A stretch of 64,000 bases of DNA, from the IMG/VR virus record IMGVR_UViG_3300010429_002210, positions 2,308 through 66,307 of that record; one strand, 5' to 3'. Positions within the stretch are counted from its first letter, which is position 1. The number at the start of each line of letters is the position of its first letter. The position numbers and the translations under genes were made by a program. The notes below the pieces were generated by a model. The model had not been told where the DNA came from. It saw only the letters and a program-made list of their open reading frames with translations, and did not search any database. Positions 1,250 through 9,005 of this stretch are shown here, piece by piece. The DNA is from a virus. Lineage: Duplodnaviria; Caudoviricetes.

Positions 1250-1315
1250 CTCCAAGCAGAGCACGACCGCGAAAGCGGTCGTAATGCTACGGTCCGGTTG
1301 CAAGTCCGGACGGAG
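1250..1315 (+). ncRNA. structured RNA family A copy 1 (twister-sister-like ribozyme candidate)
   Basis: CTCC/GGAG closing stem; AGCA/TGCT; GAGC-AC...GT-AA internal loop; GAAA-capped hairpin; GTCCGG-TTGCAAGT-CCGGAC hairpin; covaries with copies 2 and 3. Confidence 0.75.
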
Positions 1316-1610: not shown

Positions 1611-1678
1611 CTCAGGCAGAGCACAGCGGCAGTCATTGCCGCTGTAATGCCACAGCCCGGTTGCAAGTCCGGGCGAGC
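1610..1678 (+). ncRNA. structured RNA family A copy 2
   Basis: GCTC/GAGC; GGCA/TGCC; ACAGCGGCA/TGCCGCTGT; GCCCGG-TTGCAAGT-CCGGGC. Confidence 0.75.
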
Positions 1679-1686
1679 AAAAAGAG

Positions 1687-1718
1687 TACTTGACAAGAAT
1701 GGGAAATGATGATAGAAC
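1687..1718 (+). promoter_or_regulatory. sigma70-type early promoter
   Basis: TTGACA (1690-1695), 17-bp spacer, TGn-TAGAAC; 28 bp identical to 9723-9750. Confidence 0.75.
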
Positions 1719-1741
1719 ACAAAATACGAGGAGGAGGCATC

Positions 1742-3037
1742 ATGAACGAGCAGCGCACGTTTGGCATCGAGCTGGAATTCAAAAGCTCTGCCAACCATGC
1801 GGACGTTACGGAGCGCATCAACACGGCGCTCAGGAGCGTCGCATGGGAAACGGGTGAGGACCACCATACCGCTTGGAATTATGGTGGTTATCGGCACGAC
1901 ACCAATCAGAGCAACCGCACGACGTGGACGGTCAAAACGGACGCCAGCATCAATAACGATGGCGTCATGGCGAGCCACCCCCATGGCGTGGAAGTTGTCA
2001 GCCCCATCCTGAAAGGTTCCAAGTCGTTCAAGATTATCAAAGCGGTTTGCGAAGCAATCACACCCATCGCGAAAATCACCAGGACTTGTGGTTTTCACGT
2101 TCACCACGGGGTGCTGGCCGCCGAGCTGCGAGACATCGCAAACGCATGGTGGAAAGTTGAACGTCCCATCATGACGTTGGTTCCCAGCAGCCGTCGTGAC
2201 AACCGTTTCTGTCAGACATGGCAGCGGCAGTTTGGAACTCGGTCGGAAAATTACTTCTTCAATCCGTCGGTGGGTGTCGATCGGATCCGCCACACGTTTC
2301 AGATGACCGGTCGGTACTTGACGCTCAATTTCTGCAGCTTCTGGTCTCATGGGACTGTCGAATTCCGCGTTCACAGCGGCACGAACGACGCCGACAAAGT
2401 CATCAACTGGGTGGTTTACACGCAGTCGGTGATCGAGAAAGCGCATGTCATTGCCAGGTCGGAAGGTCAGCCCGCGAACGAGCAGGACATCGAGTGGGCG
2501 CACGAGATCATGATGCAGAAAGAGTACGAGCGCGCGCCGATGACGACCGAGCAGTACACCGAGATGGTGCGCGAAAATCCGCATCGGAACTACTCCTATC
2601 GGTCGGGTCGCAGGAGCGGTAGTCGTAGCCGCCGGGTTAGATACACGGTGGACGAGCGCCGAGTCCGCGATCTCGTCCTCTCCCTCATGAATGGGAGCAT
2701 GACGACCATGCAGATCAACTTCCGGATCCTGCAGCTCTTTCAGGAAAGCACGGCCCCTGGGATTCCCCGAACGGTCGAGGAAGCGCACCAGTGGCATTCT
2801 CGCGCTCAGCGGCAGCTCCAGCGCGAAGGCTACACGCTCCGGGCAGTCAATCGGCGGTTCTGGATTGCCACCCCGCCCGAAGCCCAGCAGGTGGAAACGG
2901 AAACCCACCGGATGGTGCCCAGGACGAGGGAGCGTGAGGTCTATGGCCATGAGCATGTGGAACTCACGGATGAGTCGGTCGAAATGATTGCTCAGGCAAT
3001 CGAATGGGCCCGCGATCGGCAGCGGCAGTTCCGATAA
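1742..3037 (+). CDS. putative amidoligase (COOH-NH2 ligase, Amidoligase_2-type)
   Basis: RTFGIELEF, VKTDASI, GVEVVSPIL, TCGFHVH, RYLTLN and GTVEFR motifs; GATase and GGCT genes nearby. Confidence 0.85.
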   Translation: MNEQRTFGIELEFKSSANHADVTERINTALRSVAWETGEDHHTAWNYGGYRHDTNQSNRTTWTVKTDASINNDGVMASHPHGVEVVSPILKGSKSFKIIKAVCEAITPIAKITRTCGFHVHHGVLAAELRDIANAWWKVERPIMTLVPSSRRDNRFCQTWQRQFGTRSENYFFNPSVGVDRIRHTFQMTGRYLTLNFCSFWSHGTVEFRVHSGTNDADKVINWVVYTQSVIEKAHVIARSEGQPANEQDIEWAHEIMMQKEYERAPMTTEQYTEMVRENPHRNYSYRSGRRSGSRSRRVRYTVDERRVRDLVLSLMNGSMTTMQINFRILQLFQESTAPGIPRTVEEAHQWHSRAQRQLQREGYTLRAVNRRFWIATPPEAQQVETETHRMVPRTREREVYGHEHVELTDESVEMIAQAIEWARDRQRQFR

Positions 3038-3038
3038 A

Positions 3039-3110
3039 GTGCAAGCAGAGCACACCGACCGTAGGAGCGGTCGGTGTAATGCTACTCCCAGGTTGCAAGT
3101 CCTGGGGCAC
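3039..3110 (+). ncRNA. structured RNA family A copy 3
   Basis: GTGC/GCAC; AGCA/TGCT; ACACCGACC/GGTCGGTGT; CCCAGG-TTGCAAGT-CCTGGG. Confidence 0.75.
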
Positions 3111-3120
3111 GGAGGTGACG

Positions 3121-3333
3121 ATGGCAAGGATACTGGTAGACAAGTACGACGGCCACGTTGAGGCGAAGCTCAAGGAGTTTTGTTTTCGTCATCATGTGAA
3201 AATCGAGGAACGCTACACGACGCAAAGCGGCAACGCGAAGGTCGCGACGAAGCGTGCGAAGGTGTCAAAACTCAACGGGGAAATCATGCGGCTTGTCTAC
3301 GACACGTCGCGCAGGGTTTGGTACAACTCATAA
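3121..3333 (+). CDS. hypothetical early protein
   Basis: GGAGGTG SD before ATG 3121. Confidence 0.65.
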   Translation: MARILVDKYDGHVEAKLKEFCFRHHVKIEERYTTQSGNAKVATKRAKVSKLNGEIMRLVYDTSRRVWYNS

Positions 3334-3349
3334 AAGGAGGTAGTGCATC

Positions 3350-3547
3350 ATGGCAGTCAATACAGCGTACAGTCGGAACCGGGACTGGTCGGTTGGTGCC
3401 ACTGTGAAGGTCGGGTTCCTCACGCTGATCGTCACGGGGTGCAAAGCGGTAAAGGACGGGATGCCTGACATCTACACGCTGAAAAGCGTGGATGGAAGGA
3501 AGCTCTACGAGTTCATTCCCCACAACGGACTGCGACGGATCGGATAA
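3350..3547 (+). CDS. hypothetical early protein
   Basis: AAGGAGG SD. Confidence 0.7.
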   Translation: MAVNTAYSRNRDWSVGATVKVGFLTLIVTGCKAVKDGMPDIYTLKSVDGRKLYEFIPHNGLRRIG

Positions 3548-3607
3548 CCCTGTGGGATGCATCATTCATGCATCCCGGCGCTATACAAGATAAGGGTTGA
3601 AAAGCGC
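3547..3607 (+). ncRNA. structured RNA family B copy 1 (pseudoknot)
   Basis: ACCCT/AGGGT stem, 9-bp hairpin, GCGCT/AGCGC pseudoknot stem. Confidence 0.7.
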
Positions 3608-3632
3608 GAACTTCAAGTAACAGGAGGATGTC

Positions 3633-3809
3633 ATGGCAAAGACGGTTAGAATTCAATTCTTAGAGCCGCGTCGGCCCGGTCGGCTGGTGCGGAAAGCCAG
3701 AATCATTCGGACGCAGAAGCAGGACCAGCGCCTCTGGGTTGAAGAGGTCCAGGAGATCCGTGGGCGCAAGTTCAAGATCATGGTCCCCAATCCCCAGCTC
3801 GGAGTGTAA
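3633..3809 (+). CDS. hypothetical protein (58 aa, MAKTVRIQF...)
   Basis: read manually; CAGGAGG SD; below ORF-track length cut-off. Confidence 0.6.
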   Translation: MAKTVRIQFLEPRRPGRLVRKARIIRTQKQDQRLWVEEVQEIRGRKFKIMVPNPQLGV

Positions 3810-3823
3810 AGGAGGAGAGTGTC

Positions 3824-4894
3824 ATGTGCGGCATCTATGGGTACGTTGGCAAGCCATTCAACAAGGAGAAACTGTGCATGCTCATGAAGAACCTGGCCAT
3901 CGCAACAGAGGTCAGGGGCACTGACAGCACAGGGGTGGTTGCCACCACACGGCGGAAGGCTTACTTCTCCAAAGCCGTGGAGAAAGCGTCCAAGTTCGTC
4001 CAGCACGGTGACTTCGAGAAAGCCATCGTGACGCGTGGTTGCCGGTACTTCCTGGGCCATAACAGGGCGGCATCCTGTGGCGGAGTGACGGTTCCGAACG
4101 CGCACCCGTTCAAGGGTGAAAAGTTCTTCCTGGTGCACAACGGTACGTCGCGTGTTGCGAATCAGATGTGCGACGAGCGTGGTCTGGTCCGCGAGGGTCA
4201 GACAGACAGCGAAGCCATCCTGAAACTGATCGAGGCCGACGGGCTGAAAAGCAGTGAAGATCTGCTCAACAAGCTCACGGATTTTAGCATCGTTCTGCTC
4301 GACTACAAGAAGCGGAACGGCGCGCTGTATTTCTTCCGAAACCACATGAAACCCATGTACGTGGCGGATCTCAGGAAGTGGTTTGGTGTCAGGATTTTCG
4401 CGAGCACCAAGGAGATCCTGGAGCGTGCCATCCTCCGCACCTTCAACCTCAAGGTGGAGCAGGTTCAGGAAATTCTGTCCACCGGATGGAACACTCGGCC
4501 GGGTTGCATCTACCGAGTGACCGCGAAAGACGGCGAGTTCCAGAACATCGGAAAGTTCCTGTGGGAGGAGACGGAGGCACACCTGAGGCAAAGGTTGGCC
4601 GCTCAGCAGGAACGCGATGAAGAGCGCCAGCAGCGCCGCTCAGACCGCGCTGTCATGAAAGAGACAAAGCGCATCCTGACCAGGGACAGTCAGGGAGCAC
4701 TGCCGTACAGGACAGAGCAGAAACCGTCGGGGATTGAAGTTGGGACGGTTAAGACGACCGATTCCAAAATCGACGCATGGCGGAAGTGGGAGAAGGAGCA
4801 CCTGGGAAACTGGATGGAGGACGACCTCTACATCCATCGGGTGGCCAGCAGGGACTACATGCGCTCCATGAAGAAAAGGGGGAAGCTCCACTAA
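3824..4894 (+). CDS. class II glutamine amidotransferase (Ntn hydrolase)
   Basis: N-terminal MCGIYG, RGTDSTG, GHNRAAS, NAHPF, HNGT, TDSE. Confidence 0.9.
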   Translation: MCGIYGYVGKPFNKEKLCMLMKNLAIATEVRGTDSTGVVATTRRKAYFSKAVEKASKFVQHGDFEKAIVTRGCRYFLGHNRAASCGGVTVPNAHPFKGEKFFLVHNGTSRVANQMCDERGLVREGQTDSEAILKLIEADGLKSSEDLLNKLTDFSIVLLDYKKRNGALYFFRNHMKPMYVADLRKWFGVRIFASTKEILERAILRTFNLKVEQVQEILSTGWNTRPGCIYRVTAKDGEFQNIGKFLWEETEAHLRQRLAAQQERDEERQQRRSDRAVMKETKRILTRDSQGALPYRTEQKPSGIEVGTVKTTDSKIDAWRKWEKEHLGNWMEDDLYIHRVASRDYMRSMKKRGKLH

Positions 4895-5025
4895 TGCGAA
4901 AAGACATCAAAGAAGTGCTCGACTTTGTCGGGTACGTTGTGGGTGGCATCCTGTTCTTTGTCGGGCTTGTAATGCTGCTCGGGTTCGGTGACATAGTGCT
5001 GGAATTGGTTCGTAATGCATTCTAA
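4894..5025 (+). CDS. small membrane protein
   Basis: overlapping TAATG junction; hydrophobic helix. Confidence 0.55.
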   Translation: MRKDIKEVLDFVGYVVGGILFFVGLVMLLGFGDIVLELVRNAF

Positions 5026-5037
5026 AGGAGGAGAACT

Positions 5038-5439
5038 ATGGGAATGGTATTCGTGTATGGGTCGTTGAAAACTGGTGGTTACAATAGCTGTCTGATGGTG
5101 GGTTCCGAGTTCATCGGTCGAGCCCACATGTGCAGGAAGTACTTGATGGTGAGCCTGGGACCGTTTCCGGGTCTGCTCTACAATCACGACGCGAAAGTGC
5201 CCGCAAGCGGTGAGGTCTACAAGGTCTCCAAAAAGACCTTGAAGCGGTTGGATCAGCTCGAGGGCCACCCCAACTTCTACCGCAGGAAGCGCGTCTGGGT
5301 CAACCTGGGTGGTGGGAAGAAAGTTCGCTGCTGGGTGTACTTTTACAACCCGCCGATCCACCCCCAAACGGTGAAGGACAGGGCAGTTGCCAGCGGGCAC
5401 TGGCCTTGCACACCAGTTCGTGCAGCCTCTACCATGTAG
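5038..5439 (+). CDS. gamma-glutamylcyclotransferase (GGCT/AIG2-like)
   Basis: VFVYGSLK, GEVY and LDQLEGHPNFYRR motifs. Confidence 0.9.
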   Translation: MGMVFVYGSLKTGGYNSCLMVGSEFIGRAHMCRKYLMVSLGPFPGLLYNHDAKVPASGEVYKVSKKTLKRLDQLEGHPNFYRRKRVWVNLGGGKKVRCWVYFYNPPIHPQTVKDRAVASGHWPCTPVRAASTM

Positions 5440-5445
5440 ATGTAG

Positions 5446-5523
5446 CGTTCTGCGGGTATGGCATCATTCAATGAATGGTGCCATGCACTGGAGCATGTTA
5501 CAAAAAGGAACGGAGGTGATCCA
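5446..5523 (+). ncRNA. structured RNA family B divergent copy
   Basis: CGTTCT/(A)GGAACG stem, GCG, long hairpin, TGGAGCAT/GTGATCCA (one mismatch), ACAAAAAGG linker; same order of elements as the other B copies. Confidence 0.45.
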
Positions 5524-5793
5524 ATGCGACTCACAGTAACGACGGAGCAGGGTCACGTTTTCAGGGGAGACAATGCGAAGCAAATTGTCTACCGCATGAT
5601 GAAGCGAGACTTTATGGTGACAACCAAAACAGACTACATGGCGGAGGTCAGGCAACGCGTCAAGATCATCTACGGATGGGAGATCGGGATTGCCAATCAC
5701 GAGGAGTTCCTCAGATTGCCAATCACGAGGAGTTCCTCAACGATCTGGAAAAGTACGGGCTGATAACTGTTTCAGTAAATGAGGAGGTGAAGT
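5524..5793 (+). pseudogene. hypothetical gene frameshifted by a 26-bp tandem duplication
   Basis: GATTGCCAATCACGAGGAGTTCCTCA repeated at 5688-5713 and 5714-5739; removing one copy restores ...EEFLNDLEKYGLITVSVNEEVK* ending just before the next gene. Confidence 0.6.
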
Positions 5794-5796
5794 GAA

Positions 5797-6243
5797 ATGC
5801 CAGAGACGTTACAACTGTCGCTCTCCGCTCCCAGAGCGGGGGAAGAGGTGGTCGCGGCCGTTTACGAACTGACGGGCCAGCGTCCGAAGTCCAAGAAAGA
5901 GAAGTACATCTTCGTCCACGCGACAGAAGATCCCGGCGTGGTGGTGGGGTGCGTGGCCGTGAAGAAGCTCAACTGGGCCATGTCGGAAATCCGTCACTTG
6001 TACGTCCAGGAAGCGTACCGAACTCGGGGCATTGGCAGGAAACTCATCCAAGAGGCACTTGCCCATGTCCAGACCCCGATGGTGTGCTCCACCGTTGACC
6101 TTCGGAACCAGGCAAGCCTCAAGGCGTTCTACGCACATATGTTCATTCCGAGGGAACTATTCCCGAACTACGCCACGGGGCATACTGTCCAACTCCTCAT
6201 CAAAGTCATGCCACCGCCCCGTCGGGCGTCCATGCTCCAGTAA
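5797..6243 (+). CDS. GNAT family acetyltransferase
   Basis: EIRHLYVQEAYRTRGIGRKLI acetyl-CoA binding motif A. Confidence 0.85.
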   Translation: MPETLQLSLSAPRAGEEVVAAVYELTGQRPKSKKEKYIFVHATEDPGVVVGCVAVKKLNWAMSEIRHLYVQEAYRTRGIGRKLIQEALAHVQTPMVCSTVDLRNQASLKAFYAHMFIPRELFPNYATGHTVQLLIKVMPPPRRASMLQ

Positions 6244-6264
6244 CCAAGAAAGGGGGACGAGCAC

Positions 6265-6552
6265 ATGTTCAGCATTATCCACCTCAGAGAAGCGTTCAGT
6301 ATGGAAACACGTGCCCTTGTCTACCATGAGCAGGGAGTGCCCGAGATGGTTCCGGGCTACCCCGAGGGCCCAGCGATGTCCTTCTTCCTACTTGACCTGA
6401 AAACGAAGGCGGTCAAGGAACTTACGAAGGACGAACTCCGAGCCATTTACAAGTACGTCCAGTACAAACGTGACCGAATCTTCGTCTGGCAGTATTTGAA
6501 AGGTGACCCGTACGAGGGCGCCGAAGCGGCAATGGGGGCTAACATCCGCTAA
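6265..6552 (+). CDS. hypothetical protein
   Basis: purine-rich SD, co-oriented with the array. Confidence 0.65.
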   Translation: MFSIIHLREAFSMETRALVYHEQGVPEMVPGYPEGPAMSFFLLDLKTKAVKELTKDELRAIYKYVQYKRDRIFVWQYLKGDPYEGAEAAMGANIR

Positions 6553-6556
6553 TACG

Positions 6557-6613
6557 ACCCTGTGGGGACGCGAAAGCGTCCCCGGCATCTAAAACAAAAG
6601 GGTGGAAGGATGC
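6557..6613 (+). ncRNA. structured RNA family B copy 2
   Basis: ACCCT/AGGGT; GGGGACGC-GAAA-GCGTCCCC; compensatory pseudoknot GCATCT/GGATGC. Confidence 0.7.
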
Positions 6614-6643
6614 GAAACTTGAACAGAAAGGAGGTGATGCTTC

Positions 6644-6781
6644 ATGGTGAAAACCATCACTGTCGCGGTGGTCATCGCAGTCGTTGCGTACCACATCCTG
6701 GCGGGCTTGGCGGAACGTTGTTTACTCAAGTACAAGGTGTACGAAGTTCGCGATCGTATCGAACTGATCGTGGGAAAGTGA
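6644..6781 (+). CDS. small membrane protein (45 aa)
   Basis: AAGGAGGTG SD; hydrophobic N-terminus; read manually. Confidence 0.55.
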   Translation: MVKTITVAVVIAVVAYHILAGLAERCLLKYKVYEVRDRIELIVGK

Positions 6782-6862
6782 GAAGAACATGTTCAGGCTT
6801 TTCATCAACTTACTGTTTTGGGGAGTGCCGATCCTGTGGTACCTCTCACGGGTGCAGGTGAT

Positions 6863-7348
6863 ATGATGGAACAGGAACTTCGGTCCATCTTACGGCGCGT
6901 CAAGAACAGGGTGTTCGAAGAACGGTACTTTGACGAAGAGGTTGCTTACACGATTCCGAGGATCGAGGCAACAGCAAAGGACGTCGACCTGACTTGCACC
7001 GAGGTGTTGGAGCATGTTTCGGAGTACATTGAAAGACTCCCAAACGCGCACCCTATTCAGGCGCTCTGGACACTGTCGGAGATCACGGCCCACATGTCAT
7101 GGGAACCAACCGTGAAACCAATCAGGAAACCGATCCAAAAGCCCCCACAGGAGACGTACAGGTCCGAAACGGTATCATTACTCAGAAGGAGGCAACAAGA
7201 TGGCACGACAGGTGCAGTTGAGAACGTACTCCGAAGAAGAGGTCAGCAAGAACATCCGCAAGAACATCGAGACGCTGAAACGCGACCTGGACATCCAAGA
7301 AAAAGTACTCCAGGTTCTTTCGGACTTCGAGAACAAAAGCATCACTAA
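6863..7348 (+). CDS. hypothetical protein
   Basis: ORF; 3' end overlaps the next gene by about 150 nt, so the true end is uncertain. Confidence 0.5.
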   Translation: MMEQELRSILRRVKNRVFEERYFDEEVAYTIPRIEATAKDVDLTCTEVLEHVSEYIERLPNAHPIQALWTLSEITAHMSWEPTVKPIRKPIQKPPQETYRSETVSLLRRRQQDGTTGAVENVLRRRGQQEHPQEHRDAETRPGHPRKSTPGSFGLREQKHH

Positions 7349-7715
7349 GCGGATGGCTACCGCGTTCACGAATCGGGTGACCAACGTGTCGGCAACGGTG
7401 GAACACAACTACGGTCTCTGGCACTTCAACGTCTACACGAAGAACCCCGAGAATCCCTGTATGCGTGACCGTCGGCAGTTCTTCCTGGGTCACTACAACG
7501 ACGTAAAGTATCTCACCACCGAACGACTTCAATCACTTCGCAACGCTTTTGTCAGAGACAAGGGGCGGCTGGCCCACTACGAGGCCGCTGTTGCAAAAGT
7601 ACCTGAGTGGGTGGCAAAGTACAACGAAGCCGTCCTGCACATGCAAGCGGTGTATGACAGCATGCGCGAGGCGGAGACGGAGTACAGTCTGCCCATTGGT
7701 TACCTCTTTGACTAG
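7200..7715 (+). CDS. hypothetical protein
   Basis: AAGGAGG SD; 171 aa. Confidence 0.75.
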   Translation: MARQVQLRTYSEEEVSKNIRKNIETLKRDLDIQEKVLQVLSDFENKSITKRMATAFTNRVTNVSATVEHNYGLWHFNVYTKNPENPCMRDRRQFFLGHYNDVKYLTTERLQSLRNAFVRDKGRLAHYEAAVAKVPEWVAKYNEAVLHMQAVYDSMREAETEYSLPIGYLFD

Positions 7716-7723
7716 GAGGTAGC

Positions 7724-8380
7724 ATGCGAACCCTCAAAGATGAACTCAAGAAGAAGTTGAAGGGCAAAGGATTCAGGATGGAGCCCGAAGCACCATCGGG
7801 CCCACCCTTGATTCCTGGCGAGGTTGAACTTGAAGCGCGAATCGTCGTTAACGGAATCGGGAAAGCACTTTACAAACCACCCCGAAAGTCTCGTCCCCAT
7901 CGGCATCGGTATGGACGAGTGCAGATCACGGAGGTCAAGAAGCACATGGAAAAGAGACCTTTCAGCAAGGAGTCGATCCAGTACTCGATCTTGGACATTG
8001 CACTGCGCGAAACCAAACCGTTCACTGTTCCGAACATGATGAAGTGGTTACCTGTCGGCACGAAGAAGGCCTCGATCATGGGTGCGCTGGTGAAGTTCTG
8101 CCACGCGGGTGTCATGACAGTTTCCAAGGAGTTCATCGACGGCAACAAGCAGTACAGCATCTCTGACGTTGACAGGCGCCTGGGTACAGACGCCCTGTAC
8201 GTCAAGTTCCTGGAACATGTCAACGGTAAGCGTGTTGCAAGGAAGAAAGTGGCAGTCGGTGAGAGTCCTGTCAAGAGTGCTATCAAGAGTGCTCAGACCG
8301 GCTACGTCATTCCCCCAGTCATCAACGTCGTGTTCAGCGGCAAGATCGAGCACATCATAACCATCAAGATCGGAAAGTGA
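7724..8380 (+). CDS. hypothetical protein, possible winged-helix DNA-binding domain
   Basis: 218 aa basic protein; central helix-helix-beta-hairpin-like segment; fold call is a guess. Confidence 0.6.
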   Translation: MRTLKDELKKKLKGKGFRMEPEAPSGPPLIPGEVELEARIVVNGIGKALYKPPRKSRPHRHRYGRVQITEVKKHMEKRPFSKESIQYSILDIALRETKPFTVPNMMKWLPVGTKKASIMGALVKFCHAGVMTVSKEFIDGNKQYSISDVDRRLGTDALYVKFLEHVNGKRVARKKVAVGESPVKSAIKSAQTGYVIPPVINVVFSGKIEHIITIKIGK

Positions 8381-8388
8381 GGTGAACT

Positions 8389-8595
8389 ATGGCCGAGGGG
8401 AAGAGAGTAGCAATCTGGGTAAAGTGCCATGGTGAGGCGCACTCCAACCCGTATATCGATCACTGTGGCATTTGCATGCCACACTGGGGGGAGTTCCCCA
8501 CCTGCCCGCACTGCAGGAGTGCACAGATCAGGGAGTGGCCCTCAGGACGGGGCAAGTGCAGGCGGTGCGGGAAGATCATGAAGATGCGGGGGTAG
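8389..8595 (+). CDS. Cys/His-rich zinc-finger protein
   Basis: CxxC motifs (CGIC, CPHC, CRRC). Confidence 0.65.
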   Translation: MAEGKRVAIWVKCHGEAHSNPYIDHCGICMPHWGEFPTCPHCRSAQIREWPSGRGKCRRCGKIMKMRG

Positions 8596-8599
8596 GCAC

Positions 8600-8743
8600 A
8601 TGAAGAAAAAGATCGTAGCGTTCCGAGGAATCACCATGTACGAGATGCAGATCGGCCGAGTCATCATCCAACTTGTCCGTTGGATGTATTGGAACACGAG
8701 GAACTGGCCGTTCTTGCGTATCCGAACGACACCTTACAGATGA
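8600..8743 (+). CDS. hypothetical protein (47 aa)
   Basis: read manually; its stop codon overlaps RNA motif B3. Confidence 0.5.
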   Translation: MKKKIVAFRGITMYEMQIGRVIIQLVRWMYWNTRNWPFLRIRTTPYR

Positions 8744-8801
8744 CCCTGTGAGTGGCCGAAAAGGCCACTCGGCGCTATACAAGATAAGGGTTGAAAAGCG
8801 C
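8743..8801 (+). ncRNA. structured RNA family B copy 3
   Basis: ACCCT/AGGGT; GAGTGGCC-GAAAA-GGCCACTC; GCGCT/AGCGC; 34 bp identical to 3576-3609. Confidence 0.7.
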
Positions 8802-8816
8802 GAGGAGGTGATAAGA

Positions 8817-9005
8817 ATGGAGGCAGCAGAGGTGAAAATCGCACTGGTGATCGTCCGAGAAATCATGTTCGCAAAGCGTGCTGAACTGGATGCTCGTCGC
8901 GGTTACTGCCTTAACACGCACATGCAGTTAGAGTGCGACGTGCTCTACAAGCAACTGGACGCTTTGAAAAAGAGAGAGGCGGAGTTAGTCAGTTCACTGT
9001 CCTAA
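8817..9005 (+). CDS. hypothetical protein
   Basis: GAGGAGGTG SD before ATG 8817. Confidence 0.65.
   Translation: MEAAEVKIALVIVREIMFAKRAELDARRGYCLNTHMQLECDVLYKQLDALKKREAELVSSLS

Follow-up and report, generated by a model that had tools for sequence, protein, structure and literature searches.

Why should the early region of a tailed phage carry the same short RNA motif several times over, each time between two genes? The question is raised by a 64,000-nt stretch of viral DNA (Duplodnaviria; Caudoviricetes), hereafter the window, which represents most of the 66.3-kb IMG/VR virus record IMGVR_UViG_3300010429_002210 (positions 2,308 to 66,307). The first ~9 kb of the window form one apparent plus-strand operon consisting mostly of small genes, and a preliminary description of this DNA had proposed that an unassigned pseudoknotted RNA is repeated four times in it. 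The results presented here show that the motif is a genuine, conserved and uncatalogued family of intergenic phage RNAs with three copies in the window. As to its function we propose, with the chances evenly poised, that it is a putative small self-cleaving ribozyme cutting the early polycistronic mRNA.

The copies were delimited with two covariance models. The first, R1, was built from copies 1 and 3 and one homolog; the second, R2, was built from 23 hits, a training set that included one presumed chance match (L177, see below). Both models recovered the segments 3546-3610, 6556-6616 and 8742-8804 with E values of about 1e-11 to 1e-20, and neither gave a further match in the 64-kb window with filters off (Table 1). 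The motif is ~62 nt long and is composed, from 5′ to 3′, of a lead base, a strand X (ACCCU), GU, a variable hairpin, a single G, a strand Y of 5 nt, a linker, a strand X′, a segment termed L3, a strand Y′ and a tail. In the window copies the A-rich linker is 9-10 nt long, X′ reads AGGGU, L3 is either UGAAA or GGAAG and the tail is purine-rich. The order of parts given in the preliminary description (ACCCT, GT, hairpin, G, Y, linker, AGGGT, spacer and Y′) is therefore found in all three copies, the spacer being 5 nt long. Direct reading of the sequence also confirmed the 34 identical bases reported for copies 1 and 3 (3576-3609 = 8770-8803); the hairpins of these two copies differ despite this identity. 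The claim that copies start at or just after a stop codon holds as well: the TAA stop of the upstream gene (3545-3547) overlaps copy 1 by 2 nt, the TGA stop at 8741-8743 overlaps copy 3 by 2 nt and the stop codon upstream of copy 2 ends 3 nt ahead of it. A Shine-Dalgarno (SD) sequence abutting or lying inside the pseudoknot had been reported for two copies; it was found for copy 3, the tail of which (GAG, 8802-8804) continues directly into the SD of the next gene, GAGGAGGUGA, and not for the other copies. The fourth copy, described as divergent and placed at 5446-5523, falls outside the family: its E value exceeded 5 with both models, and CCCUGUG, CGGC, AAGGG and GAA are all missing from it.

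Table 1. Positions in the window of the motif copies and their parts, of the Twister-P5 ribozymes and of a separate hairpin
Feature	Positions	Strand	Details
Copy 1	3546-3610	+	R1 84.4 bits, R2 70.4 bits
Copy 1, 5′ part	3546-3577	+	lead A3546; X 3547-3551 (ACCCU); GU 3552-3553; hairpin 3554-3576; invariant G3577
Copy 1, 3′ part	3578-3602	+	Y 3578-3582; linker 3583-3592; X′ 3593-3597 (AGGGU); L3 3598-3602 (UGAAA)
Copy 1, end	3603-3610	+	Y′ 3603-3607; tail GAA 3608-3610
Copy 2	6556-6616	+	R1 51.4 bits, R2 76 bits
Copy 2, 5′ part	6556-6584	+	lead G6556; X 6557-6561; GU 6562-6563; hairpin 6564-6583 (GAAA loop); G6584
Copy 2, 3′ part	6585-6608	+	Y 6585-6589 (GCAUC); linker 6590-6598; X′ 6599-6603; L3 6604-6608 (GGAAG)
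Copy 2, end	6609-6616	+	Y′ 6609-6613 (GAUGC); tail GAA 6614-6616
Copy 3	8742-8804	+	R1 87.7 bits, R2 74.3 bits
Copy 3, 5′ part	8742-8771	+	lead G8742; X 8743-8747; GU 8748-8749; hairpin 8750-8770; G8771
Copy 3, 3′ part	8772-8801	+	Y 8772-8776; linker 8777-8786; X′ 8787-8791; L3 8792-8796; Y′ 8797-8801
Twister-P5 ribozyme 1	1255-1309	+	Rfam RF02684, 56.7 bits (gathering score 37.6)
Twister-P5 ribozyme 2	1615-1672	+	Rfam RF02684, 58.2 bits
Twister-P5 ribozyme 3	3044-3104	+	Rfam RF02684, 50 bits; ~440 nt upstream of copy 1
Long imperfect hairpin	5441-5502	+	one nested minimum free energy fold, -39.5 kcal/mol, z -5.5

Homologs of the motif were gathered by pattern scans followed by filtering with the covariance models. 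After removal of near-duplicates, 19 distinct members were retained; they come from no fewer than 12 contigs of phages or metagenomes. The motif was found on the IMG/VR contigs L006 (three copies), L199/G155, L216/G158 and L252/G157 and on the metagenome contigs L028, L029, L030, L031, L036 (two copies), L037, L039, L041, L062 (two), L072, L099 and L117 (two). These contigs span 37% to 66% G+C, and for twelve of them (including L072, L216, L006 and G155) the parts that were fetched encode essentially no homologs of the window proteins, the sole weak protein match with the compared contigs being a radical-SAM frame. The lack of shared proteins together with the wide range of G+C contents indicates that the motif is bound neither to a single phage lineage nor to any phage-specific protein. 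When a strict pattern was run against 185,579 species of bacteria and archaea, each represented by one genome, no convincing copy emerged. Pattern matches at L005 and L200, at nearly all of 77 bacterial-genome loci and at most metagenome loci were rejected by the covariance model as chance occurrences. L177, from a Lachnospiraceae metagenome-assembled genome, has the bases of the pattern but its X and Y strands pair poorly, and it was likewise treated as a chance match.

The structure was analyzed on an alignment (A4) of 19 rows with the pseudoknot written in, 17 of which are cleanly aligned. The fold comprises a 5-bp pseudoknot between X and X′ (N-CCCU with AGGG-N′), the variable hairpin and a 5-bp Y/Y′ helix, X′ being located in the loop of Y/Y′. 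In this alignment 98.1% of the cells are in standard pairs, compared to 34-52% when the partners are slid by 1-3 columns, and 11 of the 17 pairs show compensatory changes on both sides. The hairpin covaries freely apart from its closing G-C pair, which never varies. The Y/Y′ covariation noticed earlier among the window copies was confirmed and much widened by the homologs, which exhibit the forms GCGCU/AGCGC, GCGAC/GUCGC, GCGUC/GACGC, GCGGU/ACCGC, GCGUU/AACGC, GCAUC/GAUGC, GCACU/AGUGC, CCCGU/ACGGG and GCUAU/AUAGC. The first (outer) X pair is A-U in 9 rows, U-A in 5, G-C in 2 and C-G in 1, and the inner CCCU/AGGG is almost invariant, with concerted changes in L036 and L252 (GUCCU/AGGAC) and in L216 (AUCCU/AGGAU). 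As G-U pairs are confined to the sense strand, the structure resides in the coding-strand RNA.

Unpaired parts are conserved as well. The 17 clean rows are identical at about 27 of the 62 positions, and the invariant unpaired parts consist of the GU after X, the G between the hairpin and Y, the A-rich linker and the 5-nt N-GAA-N′ turn; the core is information-rich, in the manner of a ribozyme or a riboswitch. A mutual-information scan revealed that positions 1 and 5 of L3 (A4 columns 76 and 80; window 3598/3602, 6604/6608 and 8792/8796) are U/A in 8 rows and G/G in 11, with no exception, a covariation that suggests a T-loop-like turn. Such a U-A pair is present in L1 of hatchet ribozymes (PMC6561176). 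As a separate observation, column 69 in the A-rich linker varies together with the third Y pair, being A where that pair is A-U and mostly U where it is G-C, a link that could be a base triple or merely the history of a subfamily. Combined, these results indicate that the motif is a real, selected RNA structure, and the discrete pseudoknotted RNA family supposed in the preliminary description is borne out by covariance in the homologs.

The family has no counterpart among catalogued RNAs. Searches of Rfam 15 with the window segment 3300-9100 (5.8 kb) and with an 86-nt element alone, the latter being the setting where the Rfam filters are most permissive, gave no match to the motif at E<=10; unrelated families were the only ones to match in the motif region, at E>1. 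No Rfam 15 family model, those of the hammerhead, twister, twister-sister, hepatitis delta virus (HDV), hatchet and pistol ribozymes and of the riboswitch pseudoknots included, thus accounts for the motif, in line with the earlier remark that it could not be matched to hammerhead, twister, HDV-like or hatchet cores. A covariance-model search, which the preliminary description had suggested, has therefore returned homologs in phages and metagenomes and no Rfam family. In the literature neither a description of the motif nor a natural permuted pistol ribozyme was found.

All copies are intergenic and on the sense strand. In 13 of the 19 copies the end of the upstream stop codon falls within a range from 2 nt inside the motif to 4 nt ahead of it. 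Across the family the motif is followed by the next start codon at a distance of 2-83 nt, the SD is outside the fold in nearly all members and the genes downstream are mutually unrelated (small proteins without family match, DUF2997, radical SAM). In L006, three motif copies adjoin an AAA ATPase gene and a DUF2997 gene (6551-8743); in papers on twister and hammerhead ribozymes, the "ribozyme-associated genes" reportedly include ones similar to these two. Copy 2 and the near-identical copies of L029, L030 and L039 differ by 0-1 change in 61 nt, whereas many differences are seen in the coding sequence that flanks them. In addition, the homology between the window and contigs of related phages, which come from wastewater and digester runs, stops precisely at the motif edges 3547, 3610 and 8802-8803. 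These breaks indicate that, among genes that vary, the motif behaves as a conserved module, and it may act as a recombination joint between gene cassettes. One metatranscriptome contig (RNA run X19) carries a variant 5′ half, GGUCCUGUG plus a different hairpin, joined at window 8768 to the same 3′ half; wastewater RNA and DNA consequently hold more family members than the collected set.

A clue to the function of the motif comes from the ribozymes near it. The window operon carries three Twister-P5 ribozymes (Table 1), all of which start a few nt past a stop codon, the same type of placement as that of the motif. On the plus strand beyond ~850, no promoter-like or terminator-like site was found between the twisters and the motif copies; the one plus-strand promoter-like match is located inside copy 3 (8791-8818), and none precedes copy 1 or copy 2. 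The motif and Twister-P5 occur on the same contig three times independently, in the window (three twisters), in L072 (two) and in L216. In L072, a contig of 37% G+C, one of the two Twister-P5 ribozymes shares an intergenic gap (4108-4285) with the motif; this twister directly follows the stop codon, and 60 nt separate its end from the motif copy. If both cut, a ~60-120-nt AT-rich fragment would be released. The L216 copy, a new and divergent one, was found by R2 in 17 viral loci (184 kb) that had been fetched solely by means of a Twister-P5 pattern, and Twister-P5 is present on 2 of only 5 IMG/VR contigs found with the motif. Given the rarity of both elements, an overlap by chance is very unlikely, as judged from a rough estimate and not from a formal test.

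The repeated co-occurrence favours a ribozyme over an exonuclease block or a switch. The ribozyme classes twister, pistol and hatchet, as well as twister-sister, were recognised through shared neighbourhoods, and ribozyme classes have been reviewed as sharing such phage contexts, in which they may process polycistronic mRNAs (PMC4604425; PMC6765202). With Type-P5 twisters (RF02684) the motif shares the operon, the strand, the placement after stop codons and the presumed role in processing polycistronic mRNA. In contrast, its sequence and fold are unrelated to theirs and the twister model gave no match to it.

The motif would then do the same job as the three twisters of the operon, cutting the long early transcript between cistrons. 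Whether it is in addition interchangeable with them, and constitutes either a new class or the first natural, circularly permuted relative of the pistol ribozyme lacking helix P1, is a proposal to which we give an even chance. The comparison with pistol (RF02679) was made with env25 and published descriptions only, as the Rfam pistol model detected no natural pistol in 4+2 genomes nor in two samples of 151 genomes. Only one mapping preserves the circular order (pistol facts from PMC6154101, PMC6795133 and PMC6101554). According to this mapping, the parts of the motif would correspond in circular order to those of a pistol ribozyme without P1, the chain being opened between the 5′ strand of P2 and G33. 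The lead G would correspond to G33, X to the 3′ pseudoknot strand (CCCU, as in env25), the G-U-G of the motif to G40-C41-G42, the hairpin to P3, the invariant G to G53, Y to the 3′ strand of P2, X′ to the 5′ pseudoknot strand, GAA to the conserved A-rich J1/2, Y′ to the 5′ strand of P2 and the purine tail to the purine-32 region. The AGGG strand would be placed in the loop closing P2 and the chain would end in the junction; as these ends fall between the 5′ strand of P2 and G33, the motif would be a circular permutation of pistol. Natural circular permutation among self-cleaving ribozymes has been listed for hammerhead and twister only (PMC10085705, 2023).

Several features make this mapping attractive. 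Both RNAs occur in intergenic phage contexts near other ribozymes, and the conserved X/X′ sequence provides the CCCU/AGGG pseudoknot core of env25 (PMC6101554; structure 5K7C). The G before X and the G-U-G after it recall G33 and G40-C41-G42 (PMC6154101, PMC6795133), a hairpin followed by an invariant G occupies the place of P3, a second helix occupies the place of P2, and the purine-rich GAA ahead of the counterpart of the P2 5′ strand recalls the conserved AAA of pistol. Little or no variation is seen in the G-U-G after X and in the GAA ahead of Y′. The invariant G has a covarying helix on either side, the hairpin and Y/Y′, but only in a circularly permuted order with respect to P3 and P2. 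Cleavage is predicted after this G, between G3577 and G3578, G6584 and G6585, and G8771 and G8772. The upstream mRNA would end in a stable G+C-rich 3′ hairpin with a 2′,3′-cyclic phosphate, the downstream mRNA would start with a 5′-OH followed by the Y/Y′ stem-loop, and after the cut the two products would be joined solely by the 5-bp X helix.

A number of observations weigh against a pistol-like mechanism or against catalysis altogether. The lead base is G in 13 of the 17 clean rows, and the equivalent of G33 is G in only ~70% of members; the base after Y′ is a purine in 17 of 17 clean rows yet the tail of L216 is UUU. The motif has no P1: AGGG is flanked by the unpaired A-rich linker and by N-GAA-N′, and is enclosed by Y/Y′ only. 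The AAA of pistol docks into P1 (PMC6101554), the helix that is absent here. The junction between P3 and P2 in pistol is strictly 2 nt, G^U (PMC4604425), whereas a single unpaired G follows the hairpin of the motif, and the nucleotide on the 3′ side of the predicted cut forms a pair (G-C in 18, C-G in 1) with the final base of Y′. The pseudoknot has 5 bp in the motif compared to 6 in pistol, and the AGGG strand is located in the closing loop of a P2-like helix rather than in P1. The Rfam pistol model (gathering score 34.5 bits) gave no match at E<=10, either in the 5.8-kb segment or in the 86-nt element; because a linear model cannot score a permuted form, this leaves room for a relationship. 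At least one contig from an RNA library spans the predicted cut site, contigs being unable to show RNA ends, and the wastewater "RNA" libraries holding the phage are probably DNA. In G155 and G157, two phages that are nearly complete, one motif copy is present and no known ribozyme. Finally, Weinberg et al. in 2015 reportedly saw many conserved RNAs near ribozyme-associated genes fail to self-cleave. The suggestion of a circularly permuted pistol made in the preliminary description thus stands as regards the circular order of parts, and so do the caveats attached to it, the missing P1 and G^U junction. As a result of these mismatches the motif is not filed as a pistol ribozyme, and that it works like one is a tentative idea.

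Other classes were compared in the same manner. On the pistol mapping the motif would be a three-way junction, as is the hammerhead ribozyme; the loop of Y/Y′ pairs with the loop of a one-bp arm (G, X loop, U), which may be compared with the contact between the loops of hammerhead stems I and II (PMC6795133), and a paired base 3′ of the predicted cut is more hammerhead-like than pistol-like. However, the motif has neither CUGANGA nor the GAAA of the hammerhead core, no Rfam hammerhead model matched it, and the G before its predicted cut is a base that hammerheads exclude. Strand order rules out the helix orders of HDV-like and hammerhead ribozymes. The sequence CCUGUGGGG is common to the motif and to one published hatchet construct, but the hatchet topology is nested and its model gave no match. 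We also considered Y/Y′ as a relocated P1; this appears sterically unlikely, because 1 nt cannot cross the stack of P1, pseudoknot and P3 to bridge the end of P3 and the far end of P1.

That the motif is not catalytic at all comes close to an even chance. In the form of this idea that survives best, to which we attribute a minor yet appreciable probability, the motif would be a punctuation mark that uncouples the stability or the translation of adjacent cistrons without cutting itself, either by offering a host RNase (III, E, Y or P) a substrate or a landmark, or by being a barrier to exonucleases or ribosomes. A position between cistrons, tight on stop codons and ahead of start sites, would suit such an element, as would a stable hairpin combined with a pseudoknot and an occurrence in phages of many hosts, and self-cleavage of the motif is a prediction only. 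However, neither a barrier nor an RNase site needs ~27 invariant and largely unpaired positions or a covarying tertiary pair. The core of the motif is constant although host RNases differ across hosts of 37-66% G+C, and the recurrence of twisters at equivalent positions points to a self-contained cutting activity.

The self-cleaving ribozyme reading itself leaves a choice, since the motif could be an entirely new class in which the likeness to pistol is convergent or superficial and the cut lies elsewhere, for instance at the invariant GU that follows X or beside the stop codon, at the 5′ edge. Such a class would share all the evidence for a ribozyme role. It would also account for the failing pistol features (no P1, a 1-nt junction, a variable equivalent of G33) and for a T-loop-like L3 that has no pistol counterpart. 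The shared CCCU/AGGG, the G...G-U-G frame and the circular order are, by contrast, beyond what we would expect by chance, a judgement that was not computed, and we regard this version as rather improbable.

The motif might instead bind a macromolecule and regulate in cis, as an antitermination RNA of the put type acting on RNA polymerase or as the operator of a translational regulator. The put RNA of phage HK022 consists of two stem-loops separated by one unpaired nucleotide. Like put, the motif is a cis-acting phage RNA of an early operon, present there in several copies, and its outline is that of two stem-loops with one unpaired base in between. In contrast to put, the model of which includes no such element, the motif contains a covarying pseudoknot, and R2 with filters off gave no match in phage HK022. 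The copies do not adjoin promoters or terminators, the compared contigs share essentially no candidate partner protein and the link with twisters would be left unexplained; a regulator of this kind is unlikely.

The motif could also respond to a ligand or to temperature, as a riboswitch or translational switch whose altered pseudoknot would change the expression of the next gene; of these, the translational switch had been put forward in the preliminary description. The H-type pseudoknot with its A-rich strand loosely resembles the preQ1-I or SAM-II aptamers, and the SD abuts the element in copy 3. The unrelated downstream genes, the variable distance to the start codon, the location of the SD outside the fold in nearly all members, the presence of several copies per operon and the lack of a match to any riboswitch family speak against this proposal, which we consider very unlikely. 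A stimulator of read-through or frameshifting was rejected, as its distance from the stop codon would not be constant and no open frame continues downstream.

The segment once taken for a fourth copy overlaps a separate hairpin (5441-5502; Table 1), which fills the gap from the stop codon of the GGACT gene to the next start codon. Within this nested hairpin the strand claimed as X pairs with the region claimed as Y. The X covariation cited from the segment was not counted, since the stretch folds as one nested hairpin; the real X covariation is that of the homologs. The top of the hairpin resembles ATGCATCAT-type palindromes. In the small open reading frame that starts at ~5525 there is an exact 26-bp tandem duplication (5687-5738), one unit of which is missing from contigs of three public runs (left out at 5688). 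Since 26 cannot be divided by 3, the window and its relatives are in different reading frames here, and the duplication is either an assembly artefact or a genuine frameshifting variant.

The early operon also encodes an amidoligase, a glutamine amidotransferase, a gamma-glutamyl cyclotransferase and a GNAT acetyltransferase. The genes for the Amidoligase_2 protein, the class-II glutamine amidotransferase and the gamma-glutamyl cyclotransferase are clustered at 1706-5439, within the ribozyme-punctuated region, and this trio occurs in other phages too. A megablast search with 11 kb of the window against a phage collection gave no match, and no protein-level relatives of the glutamine amidotransferase gene were found in the viral contigs searched.

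What is new here is the existence of homologs of the motif in unrelated phages and their repeated co-occurrence with Twister-P5. Three ribozyme classes were found by the same clue, a conserved RNA accompanying twisters and hammerheads in phage DNA. The operon offers a direct test bed, with three twisters and three motif copies on one apparent transcript. Should the motif not cleave, it would still be an uncatalogued and strongly conserved phage RNA fold with a link to ribozymes that calls for an explanation. Should it cleave, this 62-nt element would add either a new class or a radically trimmed and permuted pistol, would show which parts of a pistol- or hammerhead-type junction are dispensable and would provide RNA engineering with a very compact tool. 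Cleavage would also lend weight to the notion of phages punctuating their early operons with interchangeable RNA scissors.

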